Below are positions 1 through 14,082 of a stretch of 27,219 nt of DNA, piece after piece. Made by a program: the position numbers and the translations under genes. The notes under the pieces are model-generated. The model saw only the letters and a program-made list of their open reading frames with translations, had not been told where the DNA came from and did not search any database. The first letter of the stretch is position 1; every line of letters starts with the position of its first letter. Source of the DNA: a virus (taxonomy: Duplodnaviria; Caudoviricetes); the IMG/VR virus record IMGVR_UViG_3300009095_000062, positions 1 to 27,219 of that record; one strand, given 5' to 3'.

Positions 1-233
1 AACACCGGCCAACCGACCAAAGACCGCGCATTCCCCTGCCCGCCACCACAACTTGATCATTACGGGACAACCTTTACGATTGGAAATTGAGTACCCCGGC
101 GAATCCGATTGCTCTCTGTCACGGCAGCATCATATCGCGTGGTGATCTTCCACTCGTTTTGGTTCAGTTTGCGCCGATGAGCAGCGCAGATGCGCCGCGG
201 AGGACACCGGCTGGATCGCACTTCAAGCGCCTC

Positions 234-297
234 TGTGTGACGGACGGTCTGCTCGCCGGGCGGAAGGTCGCGGCGGGCACTGCTCGGTCTCCACCCT
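234..297 (+). promoter_or_regulatory. Putative late promoter 1 (GTGTGAC box plus -10-like CACCCT)
   Basis: TGTGTGAC at 234 and CACCCT at 292 (offset 58), the same geometry as the sites at 14195 and 20865. Followed by GGGAGG and ATG at 323. Confidence 0.45.
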
Positions 298-322
298 TGC
301 GGTTGGGCAAGGGAGGTAGAAG

Positions 323-553
323 ATGGCCACGCGCAGGACCGACAGCACCGCCATGACCACCGCGGCGAGCGGCAGCAGGAGCACCAGCCGCGAACACGAC
401 ACCAGCGGGATCGTGTTCACCGCCCACACCAAGACCGAAGGCGGCACCCCGCAGCAGCGGGACTTCTCCAGCTCGCGGCAGGTCAGCAGCGGCGAGTGGA
501 ACCCCGAGACGCACGGCGAGCCGCCGGATGTGCGTCCGGCCCGGAGCTTCTGA
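323..553 (+). CDS. Hypothetical protein, 76 aa, Ser/Thr-rich
   Basis: Strong SD GGGAGG upstream of the ATG, GC3-biased codons, first of three closely spaced small ORFs. Confidence 0.7.
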   Translation: MATRRTDSTAMTTAASGSRSTSREHDTSGIVFTAHTKTEGGTPQQRDFSSSRQVSSGEWNPETHGEPPDVRPARSF

Positions 554-564
554 AGGTGGCTCTG

Positions 565-651
565 ATGGCGAAGGGCAAGCCCAATTCCGGCACCCCGAAG
601 GACAAGCGGCTGAAGCCCAACCGGCGCGGTCGACGCAAGACCAAGACGTAG
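565..651 (+). CDS. Very small basic peptide, 28 aa (MAKGKPNSGTPKDKRLKPNRRGRRKTKT)
   Basis: Not in the ORF track. ATG 565 to TAG 651, GAAGGTGG upstream, fills the gap between neighbouring ORFs, GC3-biased codons, 12/28 K+R. Confidence 0.65.
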   Translation: MAKGKPNSGTPKDKRLKPNRRGRRKTKT

Positions 652-663
652 CGAGGCCCGCTC

Positions 664-873
664 ATGGCGCGTAGATCAAGCATCAAGATCAACCCCGCGA
701 ACAAGGGGAAGATGCGGAAGACCGCCGGAGCGAAGAAGGGCCAGAAGATCGCGATCTCGACCCTGAAGCGGTTGCAGAAGTCCAGGAACCCCACGACCCG
801 CAAACGGGCCACCTTCGCGCTGAACGTGCGGCAGGGCAAGATCGGTGGACGTCGCCGGAAACGCCGCAGATAG
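664..873 (+). CDS. Small highly basic phage protein, 69 aa
   Basis: GAGG upstream, 26/69 K+R and no D/E. The IKINPANKGK...RKRATFA pattern resembles small basic phage proteins (recalled, not searched). Confidence 0.8.
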   Translation: MARRSSIKINPANKGKMRKTAGAKKGQKIAISTLKRLQKSRNPTTRKRATFALNVRQGKIGGRRRKRRR

Positions 874-908
874 CGAAGCTCCCCCGCCGGGCCGCGCTCG
901 GGTTCGGC

Positions 909-914
909 TATACT
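909..914 (+). promoter_or_regulatory. Putative sigmaA-type -10 element TATACT
   Basis: Near-consensus hexamer in a GC-rich intergenic region, just before a structured leader and the 1095 gene. No clear -35. Confidence 0.4.
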
Positions 915-916
915 GA

Positions 917-1068
917 GATCAGCCGTGCGGCTCCGGCAGTACCGGAGCAAGCAGCGATCACCATCCCGGTCATACGGCCTTGGCAGTACCTCGGCCGATA
1001 CGCCACCCCCGAGCACAGCCCTAGTCCCTGCACGCGCTCGTGCGCCGGCCAGCCGTGGCCGGAGCGCG
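917..1068 (+). other. Structured leader / candidate ncRNA with two GG-CAGTA-CC hairpins and a third hairpin
   Basis: GCTCCGG-CAGTA-CCGGAGC (930-948), CGGCC-TT-GG-CAGTA-CC-TC-GGCCG (975-997), and CCGGCCA-GCCG-TGGCCGG near 1045-1062. Confidence 0.4.
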
Positions 1069-1094
1069 TCGCGTCCTGCCCACCAGGAGAAACC

Positions 1095-1826
1095 GTGTCA
1101 CGCACGATTGATCGTTTCCTGCTGCACAAGGCCCCGAGTAAACACCGCATCTTCGCGCTCGTCCTCGACGGCGGCACCGAAGAACTCGAAGCCGTCGCGA
1201 CCCTGCACAAGGACGACCTGCACCTCAGCAGCGAGCTGCTCGGCGCGATGATGACCACCCTCGGAACCGGCGACCCCACGCCCGTCGAGGAAACGCTGGA
1301 GTCCCTGCCCGAAGCGGTGGCCGCTGGCGTCCGGCAGTACTTGCCCTCCGACCACGCTCCCGAACCCGGCAGCCGCCGCTACTCCGGTGCGCTGAACTCG
1401 TCTCTGAACAAGATCTTCGTCCCGGACGAGCCCAGCGACTTCGACCGAGGACAGATCAGTGCCCTCCTGGAAGCCGCCTGGACCATCCCGGTCGCCGTTC
1501 GGGCCGACAACATGATCACCGAAGAAGGCGGGCTCTATTGGCGCGTCCACTTCTTCCAGGAAGTCCCGTTCATCGAGGACAGCGAGCAGGAACCGCGTAG
1601 CTGGGCGCTCCCCGACGGCGTCCCGCTCAACCGCACACTCATCAATGATGATCTCGACGAGGTATGGGACCACGTTGTTCAGGCCGCGGACGAAGGCAAG
1701 TGGGTCCGTATCCACCTGAGCGAACACGACCCCGACGATGAGGGAATTGGGGACAACGTGTGGCTGGTGGACATCTTCGATGCACCGCCCCCGCCAATCA
1801 GCGACGAGCGCGCTGACGTTCTGTGA
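1095..1826 (+). CDS. Hypothetical acidic protein, 243 aa
   Basis: SD AGGAGA before the GTG and normal coding bias. No motif recognised. Confidence 0.8.
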   Translation: MSRTIDRFLLHKAPSKHRIFALVLDGGTEELEAVATLHKDDLHLSSELLGAMMTTLGTGDPTPVEETLESLPEAVAAGVRQYLPSDHAPEPGSRRYSGALNSSLNKIFVPDEPSDFDRGQISALLEAAWTIPVAVRADNMITEEGGLYWRVHFFQEVPFIEDSEQEPRSWALPDGVPLNRTLINDDLDEVWDHVVQAADEGKWVRIHLSEHDPDDEGIGDNVWLVDIFDAPPPPISDERADVL

Positions 1827-1831
1827 AGTCA

Positions 1832-1865
1832 GCCTGGCCCCGACCGGATCTGGCCGGGGCCAGGC
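1832..1865. terminator. Bidirectional hairpin between convergent genes
   Basis: 11-bp inverted repeat GCCTGGCCCCG / CGGGGCCAGGC between the stops at 1826 (+) and 1868 (-). Confidence 0.65.
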
Positions 1866-1867
1866 CG

Positions 1868-2506
1868 CTATCCGGCGGCGTTGAGGAAGTCCATCCCGGT
1901 CTTGATCACCGTGAAGGTGGAGCTGAGCGCGGTCACGCTCGTCACCAGCCCGTCCCGCAGCCGCCGGAGCCGCCCGGAATCGCGATCGGGCTTCTCGGCT
2001 TCCTCCAGCAGCGCACCGACCTGCTCCTCCACTTCGGCGCGGGTGTCCTCCGGGACCCCGGGCAGGAACTCCTTGATCAGCGTCGCGCCCTTGATCAAGC
2101 TCTCCAGGTCCAGCGAATCGCCCTGGGCTTGGTTCTGAGTGACGTCGCGGTTGTTCGCAGCGACCTGCCCGTAGTTGTCCCCACCAAAGGAGATCGACTG
2201 GTCGATGTTCGCGGAGCCCCGGTTGGCCCAGGCGTTTACGTCGGCGTCGTAGTCGGTCACGCAGATCAACCCTTCGTCGGTGAGCCAGGTACGGAGCGGG
2301 ATGCTGCTGCCCCAGGCGCCCTTATCGGCGATGAGCTGGTGGGATACCAGGCTCTGAACCGCCTTCTCGAACTCGGCGGTGGTCACCTCCTGGCCACCAA
2401 CTTCCGGCGGGGACGGCTTTAGGAACTTGCCCGGCGGGGGCTTCTCGTCGTTGTGCTCGTACAGCCAGCCCAGGAAGGCCGTACGGACAGCGGCTATCCG
2501 TGACAT
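1868..2506 (-). CDS. Hypothetical protein, 212 aa (possible N-terminal winged helix, N/Q/G-rich linker, helical C-terminus)
   Basis: SD AAGGAG. FEKAVQSLVSHQLI...WLTDEG resembles a wHTH helix and wing, and ISFGGDNYGQVAANN is a typical low-complexity linker. Confidence 0.8.
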   Translation of the reverse strand: MSRIAAVRTAFLGWLYEHNDEKPPPGKFLKPSPPEVGGQEVTTAEFEKAVQSLVSHQLIADKGAWGSSIPLRTWLTDEGLICVTDYDADVNAWANRGSANIDQSISFGGDNYGQVAANNRDVTQNQAQGDSLDLESLIKGATLIKEFLPGVPEDTRAEVEEQVGALLEEAEKPDRDSGRLRRLRDGLVTSVTALSSTFTVIKTGMDFLNAAG

Positions 2507-2531
2507 CGCGCTTCTCCTTCACCCTGATCAG

Positions 2532-3272
2532 TCATACTCCGTTGTACGCCAACGAGCCGACGTCGGGCGTCTCGTCAGCGGGTGCGGTCTTCAGCTCCTC
2601 GCGCCACGTGCCGATGTGTTTCTTGGCGTAGCTTGTCGCGCCGATCGCCCGGTCTACCTCTGCCGGGCGGATCTCCTCCGGGTCGCGGTGATGCACGAGT
2701 ACCTGCTCCCGGAACCACGCCCGCCCCTGCTCCCGCTTCGACATCGCGGCCGGGCGTAGCTCGGTCACGTTGGTCTCGGTGGGCTCCGGCGGCTGCTCGG
2801 TCGGGGTGGCCGGCTGCGGCTCGGGCGCCGGGGCCGCGGGACGCTTCGGCGCGGGCCGTCGCGAGGCGGGTACTGCCTTGGGGCGGGAGAGCACCAGCAG
2901 GTGCACCATCAGCCAGCAGGTGATCGGGTAGACGGCGCTGACCCCGATGACAAGGCTCCAGTGCACGGAGAGCAACCCGAGCTTGATCAGGTGCGCGAGC
3001 ATGTTCCCCAGCAGCGACACCACCAGCGACCCGACCGCGACCGTCCGCGCCCAGCCGCGTACCGCGGCCGGGCCGGTGAGCCAGAGGACCGTGGCGACCG
3101 CGCCTCCGGCGTCGACGGTGATCGGTAGCGACCAGGCCATCAGGCCGCTGATCCCTACGCACTCGGCCAGCCCTCGCAGCCACAACGCGGACATGCCGAG
3201 GGTGACCGCCCCGACGATCCCCGTCCCGCCGTAGGTGACATACGGAACCCACGCTTCGCGGCGGGTTTTCAC
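2532..3272 (-). CDS. DUF2637/SpdA-like membrane protein, 246 aa
   Basis: Start revised to GTG 3272 after GGAGG. About four hydrophobic segments with AWSLPITVD and SLLGNMLAH patterns, a Pro-rich linker and a small C-terminal helical domain. Confidence 0.75.
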   Translation of the reverse strand: MKTRREAWVPYVTYGGTGIVGAVTLGMSALWLRGLAECVGISGLMAWSLPITVDAGGAVATVLWLTGPAAVRGWARTVAVGSLVVSLLGNMLAHLIKLGLLSVHWSLVIGVSAVYPITCWLMVHLLVLSRPKAVPASRRPAPKRPAAPAPEPQPATPTEQPPEPTETNVTELRPAAMSKREQGRAWFREQVLVHHRDPEEIRPAEVDRAIGATSYAKKHIGTWREELKTAPADETPDVGSLAYNGV

Positions 3273-3475
3273 ACCGACCTCCGGCGAGCCCCGGCGAGCG
3301 TGAACGTTCGCGCTTGATTCTCCTGAACGTGCATGGGCGGCATCTTCACCCGCCCGGCCCGGAAACCCCATCACCCGCGTATGACGTGTCCACTGGACAA
3401 CGTCTGCAATCATCGGTACTGAGCTGGGTAAACACCGGTACGAGAAGCGCGCCAACCGAAAGCGAACTTTGCGGC

Positions 3476-4141
3476 ATGGCTGACGCGCACACGCTCGAAG
3501 TCACCCGGTTCCCGGTCGCGGAGCTGCACACCTACCACCGCAACCCGCGGGTCGGGAACGTCGCGGCGATCCGCCAATCGCTGCGGGTCAACTCCCAGTA
3601 CAAGCCCATCGTCGTCAACGCGGGCACCTACACCGGCCGCCCCAACGAAGTCCTCGCCGGGAACCACACGCTCATCGGTGCCCGCGAGGAAGGCTGGGAG
3701 ACCATCCAGGGTGTCACCGTCGACGTCGACGAGGACCAGGCCGGGCGGATCGTCGCGGCAGACAACCGCACCAGCGACCTCGGTTCCTACGATGACCGGC
3801 TTCTCGCCGAGCTCCTGGAAGACCTCCCCGACCTGGACGGCACCGGCTACGACCCCGGCGACCTGGATGACCTGCGGGCGAAGCTGGAAGAACTCGCCGA
3901 TCCCGCCACCGGCGGTTCTCCCGACGACAACGTGCAGCAGTTCAAGTCGCTAGAGGAGAAGTACGACAGCTACGAGACCAGCGACAAGCGGATCGTGCTC
4001 CTGGCCTACGAAGGCGCCCAGTACGTGTGGGTGGTGGACAAGCTCGCCGACCTGGGCAAGCAGTACGGCGTCGACACCAACGCCGAGTGCGTCCTGAAGC
4101 TCATCGAGGCCGCCACCAGCGACCACGCCCCGGAGCCGTGA
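3476..4141 (+). CDS. Phage ParB/Srx-like N-terminal domain protein, 221 aa
   Basis: YHRNPR, SLRVNSQYKPIVVN, VLAGNHTL, RIVAADNRT and YDDRLLAELL motifs. ATG 3476 has no SD and may be leaderless. Confidence 0.9.
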   Translation: MADAHTLEVTRFPVAELHTYHRNPRVGNVAAIRQSLRVNSQYKPIVVNAGTYTGRPNEVLAGNHTLIGAREEGWETIQGVTVDVDEDQAGRIVAADNRTSDLGSYDDRLLAELLEDLPDLDGTGYDPGDLDDLRAKLEELADPATGGSPDDNVQQFKSLEEKYDSYETSDKRIVLLAYEGAQYVWVVDKLADLGKQYGVDTNAECVLKLIEAATSDHAPEP

Positions 4142-4992
4142 TCCCGATGAGCGACTACCAGGTCACCACGCTCCAGCGGGCGCTGTCCCCGGAGCAGGCC
4201 AGCGACTACGTGGGGCACAAGGTGCCGCAGCTCTCCCCGAACATTACCAGCGCGGTGGTCGCGGCCGACGCCGACACCGGCGAGCCCGCGTTCGCGTACC
4301 TACCGGTGGGGCCTGTGGCGGAGCTGCGACGAGCGGTGCTCGGGTTCAGCTACGACTCCACCACCCAGCGCGCCAACGGCTCCTCCAACACCTCCCGCAC
4401 GTTCGGGTACGCGCCGCGGCGCCCGGTCTACGGGCGGGAAGGCTGCGGCTCCACGCGGCTGTGGTCCGAGTCGCCCGCCGGCCACCACGTCTTGATCGAG
4501 TTCGGGCACCGGATGCGGGATCAGCTCGCCGCGATGTTCCCGCAGGTCGCCCAGAATGACACCGAAACCATGCAGGCGGTCGCGGCGGACTGGCGGCTCG
4601 GTGAGACGAACTGGACCAGCGGCGTCGTCAACCAGTCCAGCTCCCTGCCGTACCACCGGGACAGCTTCAACTTCCCGGTCTGGACCGCGATGCCCGTCGT
4701 CCGCCGCGGGATGCGCGGCGGCTACCTGCACATCCCGGAGTACGACGCCTGCATCGAGAGCCGCGACGGCTGGGCGGTGTTCTTCCCCGGCTACCAGCTC
4801 GTGCACGGGGTGACCCCGATGCACGCCACCACCCCGGGCGGCTACCGGTATTCGGTGGTGTATTACGCGCTGCGCGGGATGAAGGACTGCTTCACGCACG
4901 CGGTCGAGACCGAGTACGCGCTGCGCCGCCGCACCGAACGCGAGCGGGAGATGGCCGCGAAGCTCGCGGGACGCACCGGAGGCGCCTCGTGA
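4138..4992 (+). CDS. TET/JBP-family 2-oxoglutarate/Fe(II) dioxygenase (DNA pyrimidine hydroxylase), about 284 aa
   Basis: HxD (YHRD), GGYLHIPEY, distal His (LVHGVTP) and RxS (RYSVVYY), preceded by WTSGVVN and SRTFGY segments that match the JBP/phage-TET layout. GTGA overlap with the ParB gene; alternative start ATG 4147. Confidence 0.85.
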   Translation: MIPMSDYQVTTLQRALSPEQASDYVGHKVPQLSPNITSAVVAADADTGEPAFAYLPVGPVAELRRAVLGFSYDSTTQRANGSSNTSRTFGYAPRRPVYGREGCGSTRLWSESPAGHHVLIEFGHRMRDQLAAMFPQVAQNDTETMQAVAADWRLGETNWTSGVVNQSSSLPYHRDSFNFPVWTAMPVVRRGMRGGYLHIPEYDACIESRDGWAVFFPGYQLVHGVTPMHATTPGGYRYSVVYYALRGMKDCFTHAVETEYALRRRTEREREMAAKLAGRTGGAS

Positions 4993-5777
4993 TGCCCGCC
5001 CCCGAGGACTACCAGGTCGCGGTCCCCAGCTACCAGCGGCCGGAGCTGTGCGCCTCGGCGACGCTGCCGCTGCTGGCGGAGCGCGGCGTCGACCGCGAGC
5101 GGATCACGGTGTTCGTCGCCGACGAGCACGAAGCCCGCACCTACCGGCGCGCCCTGAACCCCCACCACTACGGGGAGATCGTTGTCGCCGAGCCCGGCAT
5201 GAGGGCCGTCCGGAACTTCATCAACCGGCACTACCCCGACGGGACGCTGCTCGTGCAGGCCGACGACGACCTCCGCGAGGTGTACCGCAAACACCACGGC
5301 AACCAACGGCAACCGCTGCCGGATCTGCACGAGCTGTTCACGATGATGTTCCGCCGCATGACCGCGGCCCGGTTGTCGCTGTGGGGCATCTACCCCGTGG
5401 ACAACCCGTTCTTCATGAAGCACCGCATCGAGGTCGGGCTGCACTACATCGTCGGGGCGTTGTGGGGCGTGCACAACCGCCACGCCCCGCACTGCCAGGT
5501 CAGTCTGGACGACAAGGAGGACTTCGAGCGGAGCCTGCGGCACTTCGAGGCGTCCGGGGCAGTGATGCGCATCGCCGATGTCGGGATCGTGACCCGCTAC
5601 TACACCCAGCCCGGCGGAATGCAGGTCACCCGCAGCGAAGACCGCGTCACCGCCTCCGCCGTCGAGCTGCACCACCGCTACCCCACCCTCACCCGCCTGA
5701 AGCGCCGCAAGTCCGGGCACATGGAAGTCGAGCTGCTCAACCCGGCACGTCAACTCGCAGGAGGCCGCCATGCCTGA
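4989..5777 (+). CDS. GT-A fold TET/JBP-associated glycosyltransferase (TAGT/JGT/GREB1-like), 262 aa
   Basis: VAVPSYQRP, AVRNFI, DxD (QADDDL), LWGIYP, KEDFERS and PGGMQ motifs. Translationally coupled to the dioxygenase. Confidence 0.8.
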   Translation: MMPAPEDYQVAVPSYQRPELCASATLPLLAERGVDRERITVFVADEHEARTYRRALNPHHYGEIVVAEPGMRAVRNFINRHYPDGTLLVQADDDLREVYRKHHGNQRQPLPDLHELFTMMFRRMTAARLSLWGIYPVDNPFFMKHRIEVGLHYIVGALWGVHNRHAPHCQVSLDDKEDFERSLRHFEASGAVMRIADVGIVTRYYTQPGGMQVTRSEDRVTASAVELHHRYPTLTRLKRRKSGHMEVELLNPARQLAGGRHA

Positions 5778-6264
5778 CGGTGCCCGCTCTGCCACCACCC
5801 CGAAGCGGATCGCTGATGAGCAGCGCCGCGAAAAGGCGCTCCAGCTCCGGCTGGGCGGGGCAACTTTCCAGCAGATCGCCGAGCAGTGCGACTACATCGA
5901 CAAGGCCGCGGCCTACCGGGCGGTGCTGACTGGGTTGCAGCGGATCGGCGCGGACGAAGCCCGCGAACTCCGCGATCTCGATCTCGCCCGGCTGGATCGG
6001 CTGCTCATGGCGGTCTGGTCGCAGGCCATGCACGGCGAGCTCGCCGCGGTGGACCGGGTGCTGGCGATCATCCAGCGGCGGGCACGGATGCTCGGCTACG
6101 AGGGCCTGCAGATCGACGCCACCGTCCACGCCGAGACCACCCCGAACCACGCCCGTATGAGCCTGGCCGATGCGCTCGGTAGCGACATCAGCGCCGAGCT
6201 GGAGCAGCAGATGGCTCGGGTCCTCAACGACGCGCTCCCGCCCGTGGTGGAGCCCGCCGAATGA
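5770..6264 (+). CDS. terS: Terminase small subunit, 164 aa
   Basis: N-terminal HTH (ALQLRLGGATFQQIAE) and LARLDRL...AVDRVLAIIQRRARMLG, typical of actinophage TerS. SD AGGAGG; lies upstream of TerL. Confidence 0.8.
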   Translation: MPDGARSATTPKRIADEQRREKALQLRLGGATFQQIAEQCDYIDKAAAYRAVLTGLQRIGADEARELRDLDLARLDRLLMAVWSQAMHGELAAVDRVLAIIQRRARMLGYEGLQIDATVHAETTPNHARMSLADALGSDISAELEQQMARVLNDALPPVVEPAE

Positions 6265-6297
6265 TCACGGCAGCACCAAGGATGAAAGGGGCCAGGG

Positions 6298-6639
6298 ATG
6301 GGTCGCGGGCAGGACTCGATGGTCAACGTCCGCATGTGCGACGACTTGATCGACAAGGTCGACCAGGCAGCGGAGACCGCGCACCTGCGGCGGTCGGCAT
6401 GGTGCCGGGAGGTGCTGACCGCCGCCGTGGAAAGCGGGATGCCGCTGCATCGCATCACCGAACTCCTCACTTCTCCGCCCGAACCCACCGTGGCCGTCAG
6501 CGTCGGAGCTGGCTCGGCCGATCAGCTCGGTGCACGGCGACTGCTCACCGGGCGGTGCCTGCACCCGCCGCACGCCCGGCTCCGCTACCCCACGCAGGAC
6601 GTGTGCGCCGCCTGCGACACGGTGCTCGCGCGTCGATGA
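6298..6639 (+). CDS. Ribbon-helix-helix protein with C-terminal Cys/His cluster, 113 aa
   Basis: MVNVRM strand followed by LIDKVDQAA and RSAWCREVL helices; C-terminal CLHPPH...CAAC. Stop overlaps the next ATG. Confidence 0.75.
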   Translation: MGRGQDSMVNVRMCDDLIDKVDQAAETAHLRRSAWCREVLTAAVESGMPLHRITELLTSPPEPTVAVSVGAGSADQLGARRLLTGRCLHPPHARLRYPTQDVCAACDTVLARR

Positions 6640-7415
6640 CCACCACCCAGCAGCAGCCGATCCTGGAACGGCTCCGGCATCTGCCCGCCGGCCAAGCCGA
6701 AGAACTCGCCTGCGCCGCTCACCTCGGGGTCTGGACCCAGCGCCGCCGCGGGCTGGCGATGTCGCCGCTGCATTGGGAATGGGCCGAGCTCGCGATGAAC
6801 CGCCGCCGTCTGGCGCTGGTGGCGCCCCGCGAACACGGCAAGTCCGAGGCGCTGAGCGTGAACGCGACGGCGTGGCGCTGCATCTACCAGCCCGGGATCT
6901 GGAGCTACCTGTTCGCGCAGACCGCCGACCAGGCCGAAGCGCTCCTCGGCCGGATCCGAGCCGTGATCGAGGAAGTCCGGCCGGAGCTGGTCGAGTACGC
7001 CACCACCGACAAAACCACCCGGCTCGTCCTCGGTAACGGCTCTCGCGTCGACTGCGCCGGTGCCGGGAAACGAGTACGTGGCGCTCACCCCGACGTGATC
7101 ATCGGGGATGACGTACTGGACGACGACAACACCGCCACCAGCACCCAACGCCGCAAGATCAACCGTTGGTGGTTCGGGTCCGTCGTACCGATGGCGCACC
7201 CTGGCACGATGCGCCGCCTCCGACACCCCGACGGCACCACCGACACCGTCCACATGCCCGCTACCCGCGTGCACCTGGTCGGGACGCCGTTTCACGCCGC
7301 CGACCTCCTGCTGTCGATGCGCGACAACCCCGTCTGGACGTTCCGGCGGTACGCGGCCGAATTCCACCCCGACCAGCTCGTGTCCGGCTCGCTCGCTGTG
7401 GAGGCCCGACGATGA
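6636..7415 (+). CDS. terL: Terminase large subunit, ATPase domain only, 259 aa
   Basis: Walker A APREHGKS, Walker B DVIIGDD, coupling motif LVGTP. Start revised to ATG 6636 (ATGA overlap). Ends at TGA 7415. Confidence 0.9.
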   Translation: MTTTQQQPILERLRHLPAGQAEELACAAHLGVWTQRRRGLAMSPLHWEWAELAMNRRRLALVAPREHGKSEALSVNATAWRCIYQPGIWSYLFAQTADQAEALLGRIRAVIEEVRPELVEYATTDKTTRLVLGNGSRVDCAGAGKRVRGAHPDVIIGDDVLDDDNTATSTQRRKINRWWFGSVVPMAHPGTMRRLRHPDGTTDTVHMPATRVHLVGTPFHAADLLLSMRDNPVWTFRRYAAEFHPDQLVSGSLAVEARR

Positions 7416-7681
7416 CCAACCCCCAACACCAGCCTTACCTGGGTGCGCGGCTGCATCTGGCGGCGCTGCGCGGCGAGGTGACCGTGATCGCGCGGCAGCT
7501 CACGCAGGAGCCCGCGTGCACCCTGCGGGAGCTGGCCGCGTGCTGGATCAGCAGCACGATGGAGGAAGCAGCCGCGGTGTTGCGGGGGTCGTTGGCGTGG
7601 TCTCAGGAGGAACGCGCTCAGCTCATCACGGACCTCGAATGCGCAGCGGAAGCCCTGTTCCAGATCGAGGACGGCGCATGA
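7412..7681 (+). CDS. Hypothetical helical protein, 89 aa, between the terminase halves
   Basis: SD GGAGG, ATGA overlaps at both ends, GC3-biased codons. Confidence 0.75.
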   Translation: MTNPQHQPYLGARLHLAALRGEVTVIARQLTQEPACTLRELAACWISSTMEEAAAVLRGSLAWSQEERAQLITDLECAAEALFQIEDGA

Positions 7682-8646
7682 GCAGCGGGACCTTGGGGCG
7701 GCGGATCGTCGGGACCAGCAGCACCGAACCCACCAGCACCGGCGCGGCGGTGCCGTCGGTCAACACGCGGCACAGCTTGTGGCCGGAGCGGTGGCCGGCG
7801 ATCGCGCTGCAGGAGTGCATCGACACGATCGAAGCCGCACCTCCCGAACAGCAGCCGGAGGTCCGGCGGAACCTTCCGTGCGCGGACTGCCCCGAGAACG
7901 CCCGCTGCCTGAACGCGAAACGCAAGGAGATCGGGCCGCTGCTGTTCGACCGCGAGATTCAGACGAGCCCCCGTGCCGCCGAATCCTCGCTGTTCCCGCG
8001 GGAGTTGATGGCCCCGATGCTCGACGCCGACTCGGAGTGCCTGCCGCACTACCGCAAGCCCTTCGGCGTGGAGGAGCGCTACCTGGTTGTGTCCGGGTGG
8101 GACTTGGCGTGGAGCGAGAAGGTCGGCGGCGACTACCTGGTACGGGTGACGGCGCTCGCCGACCGGCGCACCGGCCGGTTCCGGCTGCTCGACCTGTACC
8201 GCGAGCGTGGGCTCCGGTACACGCAGCAGTGCGAGCTGATCGAAGCCGACCACTACCGGTACTCCACCGACCTCGTCGTTCTCGAAGGCGACGCCGCCCA
8301 GACCATCTGGCGGCAACACCTGGAGGAATCGACCAGCGTCCCCGTCGTCAGCCACAACGTCGCCGGCCAGAAACGCGACCTGCACGTCGGCGTGCCCGGG
8401 CTGTTGATCGACTTCTCCAACCGGCGCTGGACCCTGCCCCATCGGCCCGGAGGCCGCGGCTACGAGCTGGTCGAGGTGCTGCTCGACGAGTTCGAGGCGT
8501 TCGGCTGGCAGGACGACAAGCTCGAAGGCAGCGGCGAACACGACGACACCGTGATGGCGTTCTGGCACTGCTGGTGGGGGCTGCGGCTGATGCTCGGCGG
8601 CGCCGGAGACGAGGTGTATCGCGGAATCCAGCCAGGACGCGCCTAA
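7678..8646 (+). CDS. terL: Terminase large subunit, RNase H-like nuclease domain only, 322 aa
   Basis: SLWPERW, FDREIQTSP, SGWDLA...GDY, VVLEGD and EHDDTVMA motifs. Own SD (GAGG) and ATG 7678. Confidence 0.88.
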   Translation: MSSGTLGRRIVGTSSTEPTSTGAAVPSVNTRHSLWPERWPAIALQECIDTIEAAPPEQQPEVRRNLPCADCPENARCLNAKRKEIGPLLFDREIQTSPRAAESSLFPRELMAPMLDADSECLPHYRKPFGVEERYLVVSGWDLAWSEKVGGDYLVRVTALADRRTGRFRLLDLYRERGLRYTQQCELIEADHYRYSTDLVVLEGDAAQTIWRQHLEESTSVPVVSHNVAGQKRDLHVGVPGLLIDFSNRRWTLPHRPGGRGYELVEVLLDEFEAFGWQDDKLEGSGEHDDTVMAFWHCWWGLRLMLGGAGDEVYRGIQPGRA

Positions 8647-8664
8647 CAAGGGAGGGCACCAGCG

Positions 8665-10293
8665 ATGACCGCCGCCACGATCGGGAGCCGGGAGAAGACC
8701 TGGCCGACCCGAGACGACTACGAACGCGACCAGGAGCAGCAGCGTCGCGATGCCGTGATCGAGCGCCGCGCCTACTACGACGGCACCCAGTACAACGACG
8801 ACAACGCCGACTGCGCCCGGCAGCTCGAAGCCGGCCAGGTCGGCAGCGGCGAGAAGAGCCTGGTGCGGTTGCTGTTCGAGAAGTTCCAGCTCCCCGAACA
8901 CCTCCGCAAGCACGCCTACTCCACGCAGATCCGCGAGTGCATCGACTTCATCAGCGACCGGCTGGCGCAGGGGTTCGCGGTCGATGCCTCACCTGCCCCG
9001 GTGCAGGAGGTGATCAGTGGGTGTCTGGATGCGACGCCGGAGCTGTCCGCATCGGACGAGGACGAGCAGCGGTCGATCACGACGGTGCTGCGGGAAGCGA
9101 CCAAGTGCGGCGATGTCCCCGTCCTCATCCGGTGGGATGCGGCAGCCGGGGCGTGCTGGCTGGAGTTCTGGGACTCCGAGCAGGTGGAGATGCGGTTCAC
9201 CGACGGCCGCCCCAACCGCCTGGAGAAGGTGAGCGTGCGGCAGATCGACTGGCGGGTCCTCGATGGTGAAACCCGGCAGGTCACGCTCCGCCGCGAATGG
9301 ACCCTCGACGGCGAGCCCGGCGCGACCCGCTGTGTGGAGCGGGTCTACATCGAGCGCGACGACGACCAGGAGGACCAGCTCGCTGAAACGCACGAGTGGG
9401 GCGTGCCGGTGTTGCCTTGGTGGCCGATCCGGGCGCACACCGAGGGACTTCGCGCGACCCGCGGCACGAGCTTGATCAGTGAGCAGGCGATGCGCACTGC
9501 CGACCGCTACAACGCCGTGGAACAGGTCTCCTGGTTGATCGCGCGCTACAACTCGCACGGCAACCTCGTGGTCACCGGTGATGCGGCCATGATCCAGAAC
9601 GGGGACAAGCCCATCCACAAAGACGTCGCCGACGTGCTGACCTTCCCAGGCGGCACGAGCGCCGAAGTGATCACGCTGCCAACCGATCCCGCCATGATCG
9701 AACACCAGCGGGCGGTGCTGCTGGAGGCGTTGTACTCCTCGTTCGGGCTCACGCGGGTCGACCAGGAAACCGTCACCAACCTCGGTGCGATCAGCGGCTA
9801 CGCGCTGGAAATCCTCAACCAGCGCAGCGAGGTCACCTTCGCCCGCACCCGCGCTCAACTGATCAAGGACATCAAGGCGCTGCTGATGCTCGTCGTGGAC
9901 TGCCACACGGCATGGTCGACGAGCACCCCCGACGAGGACTCCGGAGACGCCGAGCCGGCCACCCCCGCCGCGAGCCTCACCGACACCTACCCGCAGCGGG
10001 AGATCACGGTCCACCTGGGCACCGGGTACGTGGTGGACAAGGCCCTCATCCGCGACGACTACCTGTCGGGGCTGATCAGCCAGCGGGAGGCACTGCGGCA
10101 GCGCGGCTACACCGACGAGCAGATCGACGACATCGAGAACGAGCAGGCCGAGGAACGCGACGTCCGCTCCCCGGCCCAGCTCGGCGAGACGCAACCGTTC
10201 GCCGGTGCCGCAACCCAAGCCGGGCGGACGGTCGGCACCGCGCAGCGCCAGGAACCCAACCGCAACGGTGAACCGGTCGGAGGTGCGCTGTGA
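8665..10293 (+). CDS. Portal protein, 542 aa
   Basis: Follows TerL, SD GGGAGG, RRAYYDG near the N-terminus and ISGYALEIL motif, appropriate size. Confidence 0.88.
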   Translation: MTAATIGSREKTWPTRDDYERDQEQQRRDAVIERRAYYDGTQYNDDNADCARQLEAGQVGSGEKSLVRLLFEKFQLPEHLRKHAYSTQIRECIDFISDRLAQGFAVDASPAPVQEVISGCLDATPELSASDEDEQRSITTVLREATKCGDVPVLIRWDAAAGACWLEFWDSEQVEMRFTDGRPNRLEKVSVRQIDWRVLDGETRQVTLRREWTLDGEPGATRCVERVYIERDDDQEDQLAETHEWGVPVLPWWPIRAHTEGLRATRGTSLISEQAMRTADRYNAVEQVSWLIARYNSHGNLVVTGDAAMIQNGDKPIHKDVADVLTFPGGTSAEVITLPTDPAMIEHQRAVLLEALYSSFGLTRVDQETVTNLGAISGYALEILNQRSEVTFARTRAQLIKDIKALLMLVVDCHTAWSTSTPDEDSGDAEPATPAASLTDTYPQREITVHLGTGYVVDKALIRDDYLSGLISQREALRQRGYTDEQIDDIENEQAEERDVRSPAQLGETQPFAGAATQAGRTVGTAQRQEPNRNGEPVGGAL

Positions 10294-10972
10294 CCACCAC
10301 CAGCAGCCGCACCAGCCACGCCCGTCAGGTGGTTGGTGCGTCGCAGACGCTCATGGACGGGCTTCTCGACGCCGAGGACACGTGCTTCACGAACCTCGAC
10401 GCCGGGCTGCAACGGGTCGCCGATGCCACCCGCGAACGCATCATCGCGGCGGCGCGGTTGTCGGGGGCGCGGTTGCTGCGAGCCGAACTTCTCCCCGAGG
10501 ACCGGTGGCTGGCGGGCGTGGTTCTGCCCCCGATCTCCGAGCTGGTCGCGGTCGCGCGGGAACGAGCGCTGTCGGTGGTGGGACGGCAGATGCAGCTCCT
10601 CGCCGGGACGCTCGGTACCGCTGCCCGCGATGCCGCCACCGCAGGCCGCACGGCCGCCGCTCGCGACGCTCCCGACGTCGAGCGGATCGTGTACCTGGCC
10701 GCGACCGACGCCCTCATGAACGCCACCCCACCGGTTCGGGCCGCCATCACCGAGCAGCGCCGCATCTGGCAGGCCCGCCACGAACCGCTCGACGCGCTCA
10801 CCGCTCGCGTGTGCTCAGCCGAGCGGGTCGGGCTGCCCGGCGCGTCCCGCGGGGTGTGTGGAGGCTGCGGGCGCCGCTGCACGCCGCAGCCCGCTCCGCG
10901 AGCGTGGACACCTGCAACGCGCTGCTGCTGGCGGGAATCCGAGGCTGGAATGACCACCCCGACACCCCGTAG
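10290..10972 (+). CDS. Putative MuF-like minor head protein, N-terminal helical part (apparent 1-nt frameshift near 10851-10862; about 227 aa if corrected)
   Basis: GTGA overlap with the portal gene. Coding-like codon bias moves to the -1 frame after GGGGTGTGTGG (WRLRAPLHAAARSASVDTCNALLLAGIRGWNDHPDTP*). Confidence 0.55.
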
Positions 10973-11912
10973 GCCCCGGCTGCCGCGGCTGCGGAAACAA
11001 CTGCTGGCCGTCGTCGACAGCCGGACCACGATGGTCTGCTTGGACTGCGCCGGCCAGATCCGCGAGGCGGACGAACCGTTCGAGACGCTGATGGGCAGCT
11101 TCGCGGCGCCACCGTTTCACCTGCATTGCCGGTCGATCGTGGCGCCCTACACCCCCGACATGATCAACGAGCAGCGCGACGCCGCCAACGCGGAGATCCG
11201 CGCCCGGCCCCGCAGCGAGAAGCGTAAAGGCCCCCACGGCTACGAAGGTCCTCTTCCACCTCCGGCTCCGGCATCGGCCGCGGTGCAAGTGCTCCGGCCA
11301 CGACCGGACACGCTGCCCCCGGCGGCGGGGGCGCGGTTGCCCGGCGCGCACCGGCAGCTCACCGACTGGACTCCGCTACTGGCGCGGCTGGTCCGGGTCG
11401 CTCGCGACCGCGCAACCCCCGGGACCGATCCGGTGCTCGCGGCGATCGCCGAGGAGCAGCGGTTCGCTGCTCGACCTCGGGTAGTCTCCGCCGGCCAGCT
11501 CACCCGCCTGATCCACCAGACCGGGGCGGTGGAGGTGTGGCGCGGGGTCACCGGGCCGGACGCGGCCACGCTCGCCGAAGAGCTGCGCACAGGCGCCTAC
11601 ATGCCCACGCTCGGGATCTACGGGGCGGGGCTTCAGTTCACCACCAGCCGCAGCACCGCAGCTCGCTACGCTGCGGGAGGCGTACTCGTGCGGGCGACGC
11701 TGGTCGCCGAGGCCCGCACCATCACGTGGGCTGAGCTGGAGGAGCTGATGAAGACGATCGCCGACCAGCTCTCGCCCGCTCGGCGACGGCGCTTCGAGAT
11801 CCTGTTCACCGACCCCGGCCGGTTCGCCGCCGCGCTCGGCTACGACGCCGTTGTCCTTCCCAACGGAGAGCTGCTGGTGCTGAACCGGACCGCGTTGGTG
11901 ATGACCCGATGA
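10950..11912 (+). CDS. MuF Cys/His domain fused to an ADP-ribosyltransferase-like C-terminal domain, 320 aa
   Basis: DSRTTMVC...PPFHLHCRS is the MuF/SPP1 gp7 signature. The C-terminal WRG, GIYGAGLQFT, AARYA, GYDAVV and GELLVLN motifs follow ART-fold order. GAGG before ATG 10950. Confidence 0.75.
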   Translation: MTTPTPRRPRLPRLRKQLLAVVDSRTTMVCLDCAGQIREADEPFETLMGSFAAPPFHLHCRSIVAPYTPDMINEQRDAANAEIRARPRSEKRKGPHGYEGPLPPPAPASAAVQVLRPRPDTLPPAAGARLPGAHRQLTDWTPLLARLVRVARDRATPGTDPVLAAIAEEQRFAARPRVVSAGQLTRLIHQTGAVEVWRGVTGPDAATLAEELRTGAYMPTLGIYGAGLQFTTSRSTAARYAAGGVLVRATLVAEARTITWAELEELMKTIADQLSPARRRRFEILFTDPGRFAAALGYDAVVLPNGELLVLNRTALVMTR

Positions 11913-12100
11913 ACCCCGACGTGTCCCGCCGGGTCGCCGCCGCGATTCCCCGCATGGACGACCTCACGCTGCCCGACCGGCACATCATCGCCCGCCACGT
12001 CGACGAAGCCGACAGCTTCGAGTCCCTGCCGGAATGGCTCCGGGCTCGGGTTCTCCGCGCCGAACGAAGTGCTACGTCGTGGCGGGCCGCGCCTCGATGA
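11909..12100 (+). CDS. Small helical protein, 63 aa; candidate partner or immunity protein for the MuF-ART
   Basis: ATGA-coupled directly behind the ART-like domain; GC3-biased codons. The function is inferred from position only. Confidence 0.65.
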   Translation: MNPDVSRRVAAAIPRMDDLTLPDRHIIARHVDEADSFESLPEWLRARVLRAERSATSWRAAPR

Positions 12101-12266
12101 AGACGAATGGCACCTGCTCGTTCAGATGCCAGGAATGGTCAGCGACGATGTACTCGTCGTCGTCTTCGTCGCCGGTGTAGATCCGTTCACCGACACGAGG
12201 CAACAGTGAGAGGTCGCCCGTCCACAGCGTGTTGTGGGTGTCGTAGTCGACGATCTTGACCATCAT
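12072..12266 (-). CDS. Hypothetical small beta-rich protein, 64 aa
   Basis: SD AAGGAG; LPRVGERI...YIV pattern; last gene of the minus-strand cassette. Confidence 0.7.
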   Translation of the reverse strand: MMVKIVDYDTHNTLWTGDLSLLPRVGERIYTGDEDDDEYIVADHSWHLNEQVPFVFIEARPATT

Positions 12267-12293
12267 CGCGCTCTCCTTGGTGCAGCTCTGCGG

Positions 12294-12599
12294 TCAACGA
12301 GCTTGATGCCCCAACGCTTTAAGGACATCGGAAATCCACACCAGAGCGTAAGGCGGGACCGGCTCACCGCGAGAGAGCAGCTGCGCAAGATTGTTCCAGG
12401 ACTCCGAGAGCTGGCCGACGGTCAACTGGTCCGGGTTCGGCTGCGTGTAGATGTCGTAAGCCGCTTCCGGCGAAATCGACCAAAAGAAGTCCTTGTCGAG
12501 TTCGACGGTTTCCCCTACCTGCTGTTCCAGGTTGTCTAGCGCTTGGTTGAGCACCCGGCGCAGAACCTCGACCGAAACCACGGACTCGTCGTCGCTCAT
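12294..12599 (-). CDS. Putative immunity protein, 101 aa
   Basis: Small, acidic and ATGA-coupled to the toxin stop; VELDKDFFWSI...YD...LTVGQLS pattern. Confidence 0.7.
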   Translation of the reverse strand: MSDDESVVSVEVLRRVLNQALDNLEQQVGETVELDKDFFWSISPEAAYDIYTQPNPDQLTVGQLSESWNNLAQLLSRGEPVPPYALVWISDVLKALGHQAR

Positions 12600-13762
12600 T
12601 TTGCACCCTTGTAGATCTTGTCGATGTTGTCCCGGAACGTCTGGATCTCCTTGTCCAGGTGCCTGACGCGGCCGTCGATGATCCGCTGCCGGACTTCGTC
12701 GTTCGGGGCGTTCTTGAGAATACCTTTGTTGTCGTAGGCTTCTGGGTCGCGCTTGTACGCCTCCAGCTTTTCTTCGTGCTCCTTGATGAGCCGTTCATAC
12801 GACTCGACGGAGCGTCGATCTGACGGCGACAGCTCCGAGGGGTCTCGCGTTGATTCTTCGGCCGCAGCGTCCGACTCGTCGGTGTCGACAACCTCCGTAG
12901 CGTCGTCGCCGGCCGCCTCGGCGCCCAGGCCAGCCATCGCGACGCCCATCATCCCCACGCCAGTGGCGATGCCCGCAGTTGAGACGGCCCCAAGCGGGAC
13001 TCCGGCAACCGCTCCTGCTCCGGTGGCATCCAGGACCACTCCGGCGGTCTCTCCCGCGGCGCTTACGGTGGTGAGCGCCGCACCACCCACCACGCCAAGC
13101 ACCATCTCCGGGTGGTTGAGCGCGGCGTTGCCGAAGGAGGCAACGGCGTTGACCGCGGCTCCCGCGGCGTTGCCAATGGCTTCCCCGGCTTGTTCCAGCC
13201 AGCTTCGTTCGGGGGCTTTATCGCGTGCCCGACCGACAACATCGGCGGCTTGCTCGGCTGCGGTCTTGAGCTGGTCGCGAGCACGATCAAGCAGGGCTCG
13301 GGCTTGTTGCCGTTTCGCCTCCCCCGGGTCTTGGAAGGGGATGTTGACCGGGCCGGACCCCGGCGGTGCTTGTTGCTCGGCCTGCGAGACGGCACGGTCG
13401 TGCTGCTTCTTGGCGTAGCTGGTCTCGGCTTCGCCCTCGTTCCACAAGGCGATCGCTTCCTGGGCCTGCTCTTGCGCCCAGGCCAAGGTCCCGCTGTAGC
13501 GCTCCAACGCCTGGGCGGCTTGATGGAAGCAGTCCCCAGCTTCCAGCCACTTCGTCGGCTCACCGTCGAACGCGGCCCGGAACTGTTCGGCCGCCTCGCC
13601 CTCCCAGCCCTCGGAGCTGTCGATGCGTTTCAGCCCGTTGCCTGCTTCGTGCAGGTTGTCGCCGTAGGACTTCATCGCGGCAGCGGTCTCAGCAACCGCG
13701 TCCGGGTAGCCGGGAACGAGAGCCCTGGGGTCGGTGGTGGTTCCGAGTTCGGCTGCCATCAC
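12596..13762 (-). CDS. Putative type VII-secreted polymorphic toxin, about 388 aa
   Basis: ELGTTTDPRALVPG N-terminus, helical hairpin with WxG (GWEG), Gly/Ala-rich hydrophobic pre-toxin stretch, then a charged helical tip (IKEHEEKL...YDNKGILKNAP...RHLDKEI). Confidence 0.8.
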   Translation of the reverse strand: MMAAELGTTTDPRALVPGYPDAVAETAAAMKSYGDNLHEAGNGLKRIDSSEGWEGEAAEQFRAAFDGEPTKWLEAGDCFHQAAQALERYSGTLAWAQEQAQEAIALWNEGEAETSYAKKQHDRAVSQAEQQAPPGSGPVNIPFQDPGEAKRQQARALLDRARDQLKTAAEQAADVVGRARDKAPERSWLEQAGEAIGNAAGAAVNAVASFGNAALNHPEMVLGVVGGAALTTVSAAGETAGVVLDATGAGAVAGVPLGAVSTAGIATGVGMMGVAMAGLGAEAAGDDATEVVDTDESDAAAEESTRDPSELSPSDRRSVESYERLIKEHEEKLEAYKRDPEAYDNKGILKNAPNDEVRQRIIDGRVRHLDKEIQTFRDNIDKIYKGAK

Positions 13763-14082
13763 TGCGCCGCCGGGTCGTCGCCACCGTCGCGCTGCACCAT
13801 GCCCTCGAAGTGCGCTCGGGCTGCTTCGTCGGTGTGCCGGTAGACCTCAACGCAGTGGGCCAGCCGCCCCGAGATCTCCTTGGCGTCGTCGGTCAGGTTG
13901 GTCACGCCCTCGTTCCAGCGGTCGCAGAACTCGGCGACCGTCGTTGCGAGTCGGTCGTGTCCGAAGGCATCGGCCGGGCAGTCGATGTCGCTGACCTTGT
14001 GCCTGTTCATCGAGTCGATCGTGTCCTGCACACCTTTTGAAGCGTGGGTCAAGGCAGTCAGGTCGACGCGAAATCCGTCCAT
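13759..14082 (-). CDS. WXG100-like/EspC-like type VII secretion partner, 107 aa
   Basis: GFRVDLTAL N-terminus, FGH...FCDRW centre and C-terminal YxxxD/E signal (YRHTDE). Overlaps the toxin start. Confidence 0.82.
   Translation of the reverse strand: MDGFRVDLTALTHASKGVQDTIDSMNRHKVSDIDCPADAFGHDRLATTVAEFCDRWNEGVTNLTDDAKEISGRLAHCVEVYRHTDEAARAHFEGMVQRDGGDDPAAQ

Follow-up and report, generated by a model that had tools for sequence, protein, structure and literature searches.

A ParB, TET/JBP-fold dioxygenase and glycosyltransferase gene trio in an actinobacterial phage fragment, predicted to place a base-J-like mark on thymine

The locus described here raises the question of which base a phage dioxygenase and glycosyltransferase, encoded just ahead of the terminase genes, would modify, and whether packaging has a part in it. 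The window, i.e., the whole 27,219-nucleotide stretch that was analysed, is an actinobacterial phage fragment (IMGVR_UViG_3300009095_000062) and the record is 42% complete, so that all record-wide absences given below are limited to this part of the phage. As the earlier note described, four overlapping open reading frames lie on the plus strand at 3476-6264, encoding a ParB-like protein, a dioxygenase, a GT-A glycosyltransferase (GT) and a likely terminase small subunit (Table 1). Based on the gene identities, intact catalytic motifs, folds and conserved gene order that were directly observed, we consider it probable that the first three proteins work one after the other on completed phage DNA, from T to 5-hydroxymethyluracil (5hmU) and then to a sugar-capped, base-J-like mark. 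The ParB-like protein would likely switch the dioxygenase on, and the dioxygenase, as a predicted Fe(II)/2-oxoglutarate enzyme with polymeric DNA as substrate, would likely turn part of the thymines into 5hmU, a reaction expected to be partial and sequence-biased judging from tested distant homologues. The GT would likely cap the 5hmU hydroxyl with a single sugar, use of the dioxygenase product being suggested by gene context. The position before the terminase small subunit gene (terS) would likely give late, post-replication expression, and the mark would likely serve to protect the DNA from host nucleases.

Table 1. Positions of the cassette and terminase genes in the window
Feature	Coordinates	Strand	Basis and remarks
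ParB-like partner, 221 aa	3476..4141	+	PHROG 723; full-length alignment with ParB175 and ParB182
TET/JBP-fold 5-methylpyrimidine dioxygenase, 281 aa	4147..4992	+	Alternative GTG start 4138; motifs, fold, Tet_JBP match below cut-off
TET-associated glycosyltransferase (TAGT), GT-A fold, 261 aa	4992..5777	+	PF20691; motif; model; alternative GTG start 4989
Likely terminase small subunit, HTH, 164 aa	5770..6264	+	Position before terL; cassette neighbour
Terminase large subunit, ATPase half	6636..7415	+	PF03237; PHROG 28155; 52% to Kitkat gp4
Terminase large subunit, nuclease half	7684..8646	+	PF17289; PHROG 31692; 54% to Kitkat gp11

The ParB stop codon overlaps the GTG at 4138 by 4 nt, the in-frame ATG at 4147 is preceded by GGAG, the dioxygenase stop overlaps the GT start whether GTG 4989 or ATG 4992 is used, and the GT gene overlaps gene 4 by 8 nt; a small gene of 113 aa lies between gene 4 and the N-terminal half of the terminase large subunit gene (terL). 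The left end is bordered by a high-copy repeat. Identical sequence was found in contigs of two public runs (X5 over 47-13000 and X6 over 3844-8895), either of which is possibly the source sample, and RNA runs gave scattered short contigs only, which are not evidence of expression. The promoter scan of 3000-8800 returned 0 sites in comparison to 0.3 expected, the Rfam search gave no matches, the NCBIfam search gave no match for any of the four genes, and the sole PADLOC match was the ParB domain common to type II methylases. Among the 146 open reading frames of the window, no PIG-L, kinase, AADT, FkbM, C5-methyltransferase (C5-MTase) or member of two other slot families was found at another site. 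A second glycosyltransferase at about 18170-19266 was rejected as a pathway member, its 37% homologues occupying the same position in Kitkat and DanielleIgnace, both without a dioxygenase, in a search run without a positive control.

The dioxygenase carries intact H170-R-D172, H220 and R234-Y-S236 motifs, and H170, D172, H220 and R234 were invariant in both 28 and 47 aligned relatives, with S236 invariant in the 28. The Pfam Tet_JBP match (E 1.8e-4, 21.2 bits) was below the 34.9 cut-off. Two fold searches ruled out the AlkB or prolyl hydroxylase identity that the earlier note had named as the alternative and favoured its TET/JBP assignment: ranks 1-26 listed by Foldseek were all TET-family or CMD1, and the VIA Z scores for the model were 19.2 for TET2 and 17.6 for NgTET1 in comparison to 14.2 for AlkB and, among the prolyl hydroxylases, at most 13.3. 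The label 'queuine tRNA-ribosyltransferase' (PHROG 6059, RefSeq), under which many proteins of the lineage are misfiled, was likewise rejected, the fold being a 2-oxoglutarate jelly roll. The enzyme thus belongs to the TET/JBP (5mYOX) superfamily and to the lineage of Cooper and Nigel gp2, which the earlier note had mentioned; for this lineage 1,051 proteins were counted at an E-value of 1e-20 or lower, together with 417 viral loci and 100 phage records. A GTDB scan with the single protein returned one Corynebacterium locus, and the nearest relative, from locus L004, is 68% identical.

The relation of this lineage to the phage dioxygenases with published activity was then assessed. The enzyme is 15-19% identical to the tested 5mYOX175, 182, 98 and 99 (19% to 5mYOX175 and 182), and it is without the variable insertion of 26-52 aa, as the G45-H170 span is 125 aa (123-130 aa in 22 lineage rows) in comparison to 170 aa in 5mYOX175 and 182 and 178-181 aa in 5mYOX98 and 99; the alignment is uncertain inside the insertion region, while the anchor-to-anchor span is firm. 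The tail after C248 is 33 aa and helical in the model, with 22-121 aa in 86 relatives. A branch of 3.1 substitutions with 100/100 support split the lineage from the tested C1 and C2 rows, and the tree placing the dioxygenase with C1 against C2 was not rejected (p-AU 0.126), in trees that are unrooted, include four tested enzymes and contain no clade A/B or D rows, the 87-row tree being a quick version. The Dataset S11 constructs gave 0 matches to four lineage motifs, and TET67, TET79 and the clade D sequences may still include lineage members.

The ParB-like protein matched PHROG 723 (E 4.6e-52), gave no ParB match in the Pfam search, and aligned end to end with the tested ParB175 and ParB182 at 22-25% identity. 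With domain limits read off this alignment, it consists of an N-terminal nucleotide-binding-type domain (N23-P-R25, S35, G62-N-H-T, D96-N97), an acidic linker and a short C-terminal domain; no DNA-binding domain was evident in the same alignment. These motifs are kept in 47 relatives, and the protein has G-N-H-T where most tested ParBs have G-x-x-R by our reading of the Dataset S11 sequences. A ParB gene lies upstream of the dioxygenase in 84 of 87 loci, the three misses being records that start less than 550 nt from the dioxygenase. By analogy with the tested pairs, this protein is likely the activator of the dioxygenase.

The GT passed the TAGT (PF20691) cut-off (E 1.2e-13), retains the R...DDD...EDF motif (R74, D91-D92-D93, E176-D177-F178) and was modelled as a GT-A fold at pLDDT 95.8, in agreement with the DxD GT-A enzyme noted earlier, and its assignment as a DNA GT-A of the JGT-like family is supported. 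The donor sugar is not readable from the fold hits, among which GlcNAc-, rhamnose- and fucose-transferases have comparable E-values, and the suggestion of GlcNAc from PIG-L neighbours was not transferred to the window, those GTs being 35-40% identical and grouped apart from the one in the window. Related phage GT-As attach hexose, HexNAc or heptose, so the product is likely base-J-like, with base J in the strict sense, in which the sugar is beta-glucose, as one candidate. The same GT family stands directly behind C1-like ParB-linked dioxygenases at five loci (L098, L112, L117, L135 and L146) and 8 kb downstream of the tested 5mYOX175. Among the 80 best GT loci, no C5-MTase match was found in the flanks of any, and 40 have no dioxygenase in the flanks.

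To which base the cassette is directed was read from the gene neighbourhoods. The gene right after the dioxygenase in 87 loci is a GT-A (34), AADT (23), T4-BGT-like (12), a family without assignment (7), a P-loop kinase family (5), a divergent GT-A (3) or other (3). Sugar-type partners occur in 54 loci (7 of which rest on the family without a database match), kinase/AADT-type partners in 30, both in 2 and neither in 1, and the tree requires 20 or more changes between them; such near-exclusion is expected if both compete for one hydroxyl, and the independent-pairs test of GT against kinase/AADT was not significant (median p 0.0625). Both AADT and these kinases have been assigned to thymine hypermodification (PMC8989533; PMC13229309), and phage TETs of the 5mC type likewise come with P-loop kinases and GTs (PMC8256090). 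The absence of a C5-MTase from the operon and window, pointed out earlier, extended to the whole 42% complete record by the PF00145 search, and of 33 GT-type records overall a single one had PF00145, with 0 of 11 at least 90% complete and neither of the 2 cultured phages; thymidylate-synthase homologues were found in 0 of 34. In a second, mostly non-GT set, 7 of 50 records and 4 of 11 complete ones carried PF00145. With AADT in the same slot and PF00145 missing from the complete GT-type records, thymine is likely the substrate, as the earlier note proposed. Its premise that the phage TETs characterised so far work on 5mC alongside a partner C5-MTase is outdated, since phage thymine dioxygenases, with one subclass activated by such a ParB, are in print from O'Toole et al. 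(bioRxiv 2025.08.14.668559; PNAS 2026, PMC13229309).

It is quite unlikely, in our judgement, that the dioxygenase acts on 5mC made by a methyltransferase of the host or of the unseen 58% of the phage, with the GT forming glycosyl-5hmC as in clade A/B. The incompleteness of the record and the lack of any clade A/B sequence in the trees leave room for this route, TAGT-type GT-As have been demonstrated on 5hmC only, and in vitro the tested T-dioxygenases oxidised 5mC and T to a similar degree (PMC13229309). The 4 of 11 complete records of the second set also speak for it, but its seven PF00145 carriers are AADT, kinase or unassigned-family loci and not GT-A loci; the complete GT-type records and cultured phages have no such gene, the methylase of locus L024 lies about 5 kb upstream, and the lineage itself is paired with AADT in 23 of the 87 loci. 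Hydroxylation without a sugar is also unlikely, whether by a GT serving another acceptor, a host lacking the donor, or an idle cassette in a decaying prophage, and would leave 5hmU or no mark. Consistent with it, the L004 locus continues directly into terS and its 36-kb record (39% complete) contains no GT, half of the best GT loci have no nearby dioxygenase, a high-copy repeat borders the left end, and the GT was acquired separately from the dioxygenase, as its nearest kin (L258-L260, 47-48% identical, support 93/96) accompany another dioxygenase lineage. Every catalytic motif of the GT is nevertheless intact, its gene is translationally coupled on both sides, and the ParB-dioxygenase-GT order is kept in 34 loci, cultured lytic phages among them.

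The earlier note further raised the possibility that ParB targets the modification and that it is timed with packaging, for anti-restriction or pac marking. Gene 4 is likely terS, a call that stands on position and not on a family match: of the 35 loci with room, 33 have a member of the family immediately ahead of terL, and it alternates with the terS genes of PHROG 4102 and 6299 in the same slot; the top structural match in the Atlas, at TM 0.60 and short of the naming bar, is to a cluster named 'terminase small subunit family', and no terS profile matched, the PHROG 645 match being labelled 'Rnase E'. A mark that ParB steers to the pac/cos region, and that the terminase reads or makes together with the enzymes, has also been proposed by Aravind and coworkers (PMC8256090; PMC4738411), and the idea fits with the 70 of 86 loci that have terL on the downstream side, at a median distance of 1.75 kb, and with the overlap of the GT with terS in the window. 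We hold it to be very unlikely, as up to 25-35% of T is modified genome-wide in E. coli when only the two proteins of a tested pair are expressed, so that packaging coupling is not needed, and tested ParBs of this kind have no DNA-binding domain (PMC13229309). In the Arthrobacter phage Altadena the trio is detached, about 6 kb from the terminase with 11 opposite-strand genes between, and three further loci with more than 7 kb downstream had no terL detected by five clusters. The cassette also adjoins several unrelated terS and terL families, and Kitkat and DanielleIgnace, the closest virion relatives, share the split terL and package without a dioxygenase. Overall, the TET/JBP family, the likely thymine substrate and the JGT-like GT-A of the earlier reading were retained, and the 5mC premise and the packaging link were not.

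Beyond the pathway itself, we lean slightly towards regarding the Nigel/Cooper gp2 lineage as a third, minimal class of ParB-activated thymine dioxygenases without the insert, which together with a TAGT makes glycosylated hydroxymethyluracil, a counterpart of base J in bacterial viruses; the three genes would then be the smallest complete kit, given the predicted activity. The proposed pathway has against it that removal of the variable insertion abolished activity in tested enzymes, that the lineage is distant from these enzymes, that the ParB departs from the usual G-x-x-R and that many tested dioxygenase/ParB pairs gave less than 5% 5hmU (PMC13229309). Cassettes of this type, the part played by ParB and the prediction of thymine as substrate are already in print and the pattern is common, which limits the surprise; the dioxygenase branch and the sugar step appear to lie beyond the tested constructs, and our literature search found no report of glycosylated 5hmU in phage DNA. 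If true, the proposal would fill in the last predicted step of post-replicative thymine modification in phages, sugar on 5hmU, and would add a large lineage to the thymine dioxygenases; it would also have consequences for how the base J enzymes arose and for actinophage resistance to restriction, and could supply two small enzymes with which to label T or 5hmU.

In comparison to kinetoplastid base J (JBP1/2 and JGT), the cassette shares the two predicted steps, T to 5hmU and then a GT-A sugar, and phage GT-As are reported by Pyle as structural matches of T. cruzi JGT (bioRxiv 2023.12.21.572611); the kinetoplastid system differs in being eukaryotic, in having no ParB, in its fixed beta-glucose and in its gene-silencing role. 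The phage C5-MT/TET/GT-A clusters (PMC8256090; bioRxiv 2023.12.21.572611) likewise combine a post-replicative dioxygenase with a GT-A carrying R...DDD...EDY/F, but they require a cognate C5-MTase, which is missing from the record of the window, and form glycosyl-5hmC. Pyle found a methyltransferase in only 20-30% of such contigs and predicted 5hmU for the rest (bioRxiv 2023.12.21.572611).

Clade C1 (5mYOX176/ParB176, PMC13229309) resembles the window in the gene immediately upstream, which encodes a ParB made up of nucleotide-binding and C-terminal domains, the HxD/H/R set, the absence of an adjacent C5-MTase (in a 42% complete record) and the C-terminal extension past the conserved Cys, which counts for ParB dependence because it is diagnostic of ParB-dependent enzymes. 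The enzyme of the window differs by its 19% identity to 5mYOX175/182, its separate long branch and the missing 26-52 aa insertion. The commonest neighbours in the mining of O'Toole et al. were GTs (31%), ParBs (27%) and terminases (19%); the C1 subclass was linked to AADT, kinase and GATase, GT action on 5hmU was outside their tests, and their ParB-dioxygenase pair formed no stable complex (PMC13229309).

The closest likeness in dioxygenase lineage, GT family and ParB-dioxygenase-GT order was seen with the B5 mycobacteriophages Rich, Acadian and Serendipitous and with Indlovu and Altadena. The mycobacteriophage dioxygenases are 47-52% and the GT family 36-42% identical, and their cassettes stand at the genome start ahead of the terminase. 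Rich, Indlovu and Altadena have an extra PIG-L deacetylase, and Rich and Indlovu also a kinase, neither of which is present in the window, while Nigel has a kinase and no GT. Our literature search found no biochemical test for the Rich-type, Indlovu, Altadena or Nigel/Cooper gp1-gp2 cassettes; as cultured phages on laboratory hosts carry the trio, the minimal-class proposal is directly testable in them.

The results showed that four overlapping plus-strand genes occupy 3476-6264, as the earlier note had described, and that the catalytic motifs it listed are intact: H170, D172, H220 and R234 of the dioxygenase are invariant across the aligned relatives, and the glycosyltransferase (GT) carries the R...DDD...EDF motif of phage DNA GT-A enzymes and JGT (Pyle et al., bioRxiv 2023.12.21.572611, accessible portion). 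The GT was assigned to the TET-associated glycosyltransferases (TAGT), and the dioxygenase is nearest to TET folds, with TET-family structures ranked first by Foldseek for its model (pLDDT 85). The VIA-align Z values were 19.2 for TET2, 17.9 for CMD1, 17.6 for NgTET1, 15.8 for CcTet, 14.5 for FTO, 14.2 for AlkB and 13.3 for PHD, so that the clustering with AlkB or prolyl hydroxylases considered earlier was not found. Gene 4, an HTH protein, is likely terS by position rather than by profile, since its family lies directly 5' of terL in 33 of 35 relatives. As claimed before, no C5-methyltransferase (profile PF00145) was found in the record, which is estimated to be 42% complete. Two database labels look wrong: 'queuine tRNA-ribosyltransferase', widely given to the dioxygenase lineage (PHROG 6059, RefSeq records), and 'Rnase E', given to the family of the likely terS (PHROG 645).

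Features of the window and, where an L-number is given, of related loci
Feature	Position	Strand	Observation
Repeat	1-76		High copy
DUF2637-like membrane protein	2532-3252	-	E 0.0018; PHROG 733; divergent from cassette
Gene 1, ParB-like	3476-4141	+	PHROG 723, E 4.6e-52
Gene 2, dioxygenase	4147-4992	+	Tet_JBP E 1.8e-4, under Pfam cut-off
Gene 3, TAGT GT-A	4992-5777	+	Above Pfam cut-off
Gene 4, likely terS	5770-6264	+	HTH protein
terL, ATPase gene	6636-7415		Split terL
ORF between terL parts	7412-7681		89 aa, without family
terL, nuclease gene	7684-8646		Split terL
Single long ORF	10290-11912		Two genes (gp16, gp17) in Kitkat; MuF-like match from residue 236; first half seems frame-changed near 10850; same letters in long contigs of two public sequencing runs (X5, X6); C-terminal part ADP-ribosyltransferase-like by eye, no library match
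Three-gene cargo amid head genes	12294-14082	-	WXG100/EspC-like 107-aa gene; 388-aa protein with T7SS secretion-signal domain (PF21725, E 4.6e-46); 101-aa gene
Second glycosyltransferase, GT4 / GT-B	about 18170-19266		Amid head-tail genes; 37% to Kitkat gp29, same place
T4 beta-glucosyltransferase-like protein, then small gene	L043:2117-3043		Behind dioxygenase; 11 more loci
319-aa family	L024:8876-9835		Same slot behind dioxygenase; 6 more loci; no Pfam, PHROG or NCBIfam match
ParB + dioxygenase as one ORF	L077:7287-8816		Provirus; separate in close relative L086
Cassette with second GT-like gene	L258:723-4352; L260:5301-8899		ParB, GT, dioxygenase, terS-like, second GT-like gene (DDD by eye), then terL

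In the available text of O'Toole et al. (PMC13229309), phage TET/JBP-type 5-methylpyrimidine dioxygenases (5mYOX) without a C5-methyltransferase convert T to 5hmU on DNA, which supersedes the earlier statement that characterised phage TETs pair with a C5-methyltransferase and act on 5mC. One subclass is described there as requiring an adjoining ParB without a DNA-binding domain; when dioxygenase/ParB pairs were co-expressed in E. coli, 5hmU reached 25-35% at most and stayed below 5% for many pairs, no stable complex of the two was trapped in the work as described, and the commonest neighbours in mining were GTs, ParBs and terminases. Both the 5hmU prediction for methylase-free clusters and the packaging idea are also in print (Pyle, bioRxiv 2023.12.21.572611; Lee, PMC8989533; Burke, PMC8256090; Iyer 2016, PMC4738411; as far as their available text goes), and the Tonitrus cassette is called a thymine hypermodification system in the accessible part of a phage announcement. 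What is already published thus includes this kind of cassette, the role of ParB and the prediction of thymine as substrate, and the trio is present in cultured phages.

In the proposed route, ParB would likely activate the dioxygenase on double-stranded DNA, the dioxygenase would very probably convert T to 5hmU and, given 5hmU, the GT would probably attach a sugar to it; the whole route from T through 5hmU to a sugar-capped base is in our judgement reasonably likely, and it is doubtful that the sugar is glucose and the product hence true base J.

The 87 loci whose gene context was compared comprised 82 viral contigs (80 of them the top-ranked among 417), 3 cultured phages, 1 GTDB locus and the window itself, and ParB was upstream of the dioxygenase in 84. 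Directly after the dioxygenase came a GT-A in 34 loci, AADT in 23 and a T4-BGT-like protein in 12; the remaining loci had an unassigned family (7), a kinase family (5), a divergent GT-A (3) or another gene (3) there. With the 7-locus unassigned family counted, by eye, as a sugar transferase, partners were sugar-type in 54 loci, kinase-or-AADT-type in 30, both in 2 and neither in 1. The tree implies 20 or more changes between them, and sugar against kinase/AADT partners gave p 0.0625 in the independent-pairs test. AADT carries most weight for thymine, because kinases and GTs are also found alongside TETs of the 5mC type (Burke et al., PMC8256090, available text). Among the other 33 GT-A records, 1 had PF00145 (0 of 11 near-complete ones, 0 of 2 cultured phages), and PF00303 was found in none of the 34 GT-A records. 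A further set of 50 records combined 44 of the 53 non-GT-A loci with 6 others; PF00145 was present in 7 of these, including 4 of the 11 that are complete, and each carrier was an AADT, kinase or unassigned-family locus. A 5mC route, for which the comparable in vitro oxidation of 5mC by the tested T-dioxygenases speaks (PMC13229309, available text) and against which these PF00145 counts for GT-A records stand, is quite improbable.

The GT is an exchangeable part of the cassette. In L004, which has the closest dioxygenase (68%), ParB, dioxygenase, terS and terL are present and a GT is absent from the record, and the nearest GTs (47-48%, support 93/96) are those of L258-L260, in cassettes ordered ParB-GT-dioxygenase-terS with a different dioxygenase lineage. 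The window's GT family is also located behind C1-like dioxygenases and, on the contig of tested enzyme 5mYOX175, 8 kb from that dioxygenase. Among the best 80 GT loci, a dioxygenase was in the flank of 40 and in none of the flanks of the other 40, and no C5-methyltransferase match was found in these flanks. That the GT is idle or acts on another target would accord with the 40 loci lacking a flanking dioxygenase; weighed with the 34 loci where a GT-A directly follows one, it appears unlikely. Cultured carriers of the trio have an additional PIG-L deacetylase, which suggests GlcNAc as their sugar; since their GTs group apart from that of the window, this was not carried over to the window.

The earlier note also coupled the cassette to packaging, and terL is indeed downstream in 70 of 86 loci (of the 16 without it, 12 run out of sequence within 4.3 kb and 4 continue for more than 7 kb). 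This coupling is not supported: in the cultured phage Altadena the cassette stops 6 kb short of the genome end and 11 leftward genes separate it from terS, several unrelated terminase families adjoin the cassette, and the published dioxygenase/ParB pairs are active in E. coli on their own. The proximity therefore seems better explained by a common late transcript than by a mechanistic link, and a pac mark is very improbable.

The 27,219-base record (68% GC) is related in its portal, split terL, capsid and GT4 gene (37-54%) to Arthrobacter phages Kitkat and DanielleIgnace, which are annotated with the same terL split (52-54% identity) and from which a dioxygenase of the window type is absent. 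The cargo resembles a type VII polymorphic toxin and its immunity gene, and the second glycosyltransferase may serve in virion-protein glycosylation. The two small cargo proteins fall into 90% clusters with proteins from Saccharopolyspora, which hints at that host genus, and near-identical DNA is present in soil, plant and food-fermentation metagenomes. The repeat at 1-76 (in run X5 its contig depth reaches 750, in comparison to 18.7 for the phage) is likely an insertion-sequence end, which would fit a prophage broken at such an element.

By motif scans, four tested enzymes were traced to their contigs (5mYOX175 = L160, 182 = L115, 98 = L242, 99 = L230). The window dioxygenase is 15-19% identical to these and 46-66% identical to three sequences from its own Nigel/Cooper gp2 lineage, and in a 23-row tree, which holds no 5mC-type row, a branch of 3.1 substitutions (100/100) sets the lineage apart from all four; grouping it with clade C1, the ParB-dependent class, against C2 was not rejected by the tree test. 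From G45 to H170, 22 rows of the lineage span 123-130 aa; the figure is 170 in 5mYOX175 and 182, 178-181 in C2 and 147-171 in the remaining C1-like rows, so that the lineage is almost without the variable insertion, which the tested enzymes need. It shares the C-terminal extension of the ParB-dependent class. By context, the window dioxygenase would work like a ParB-dependent T-dioxygenase, with clade C1 as a candidate membership. In the literature covered, where subscription journals are thinly represented, neither an assay of a Nigel/Cooper-type dioxygenase nor a report of glycosylated 5hmU in phage DNA was found. Activity of this insert-less lineage and a sugar step on 5hmU are what would be new beyond the published cassette, and would be notable if a phage counterpart of base J were shown.
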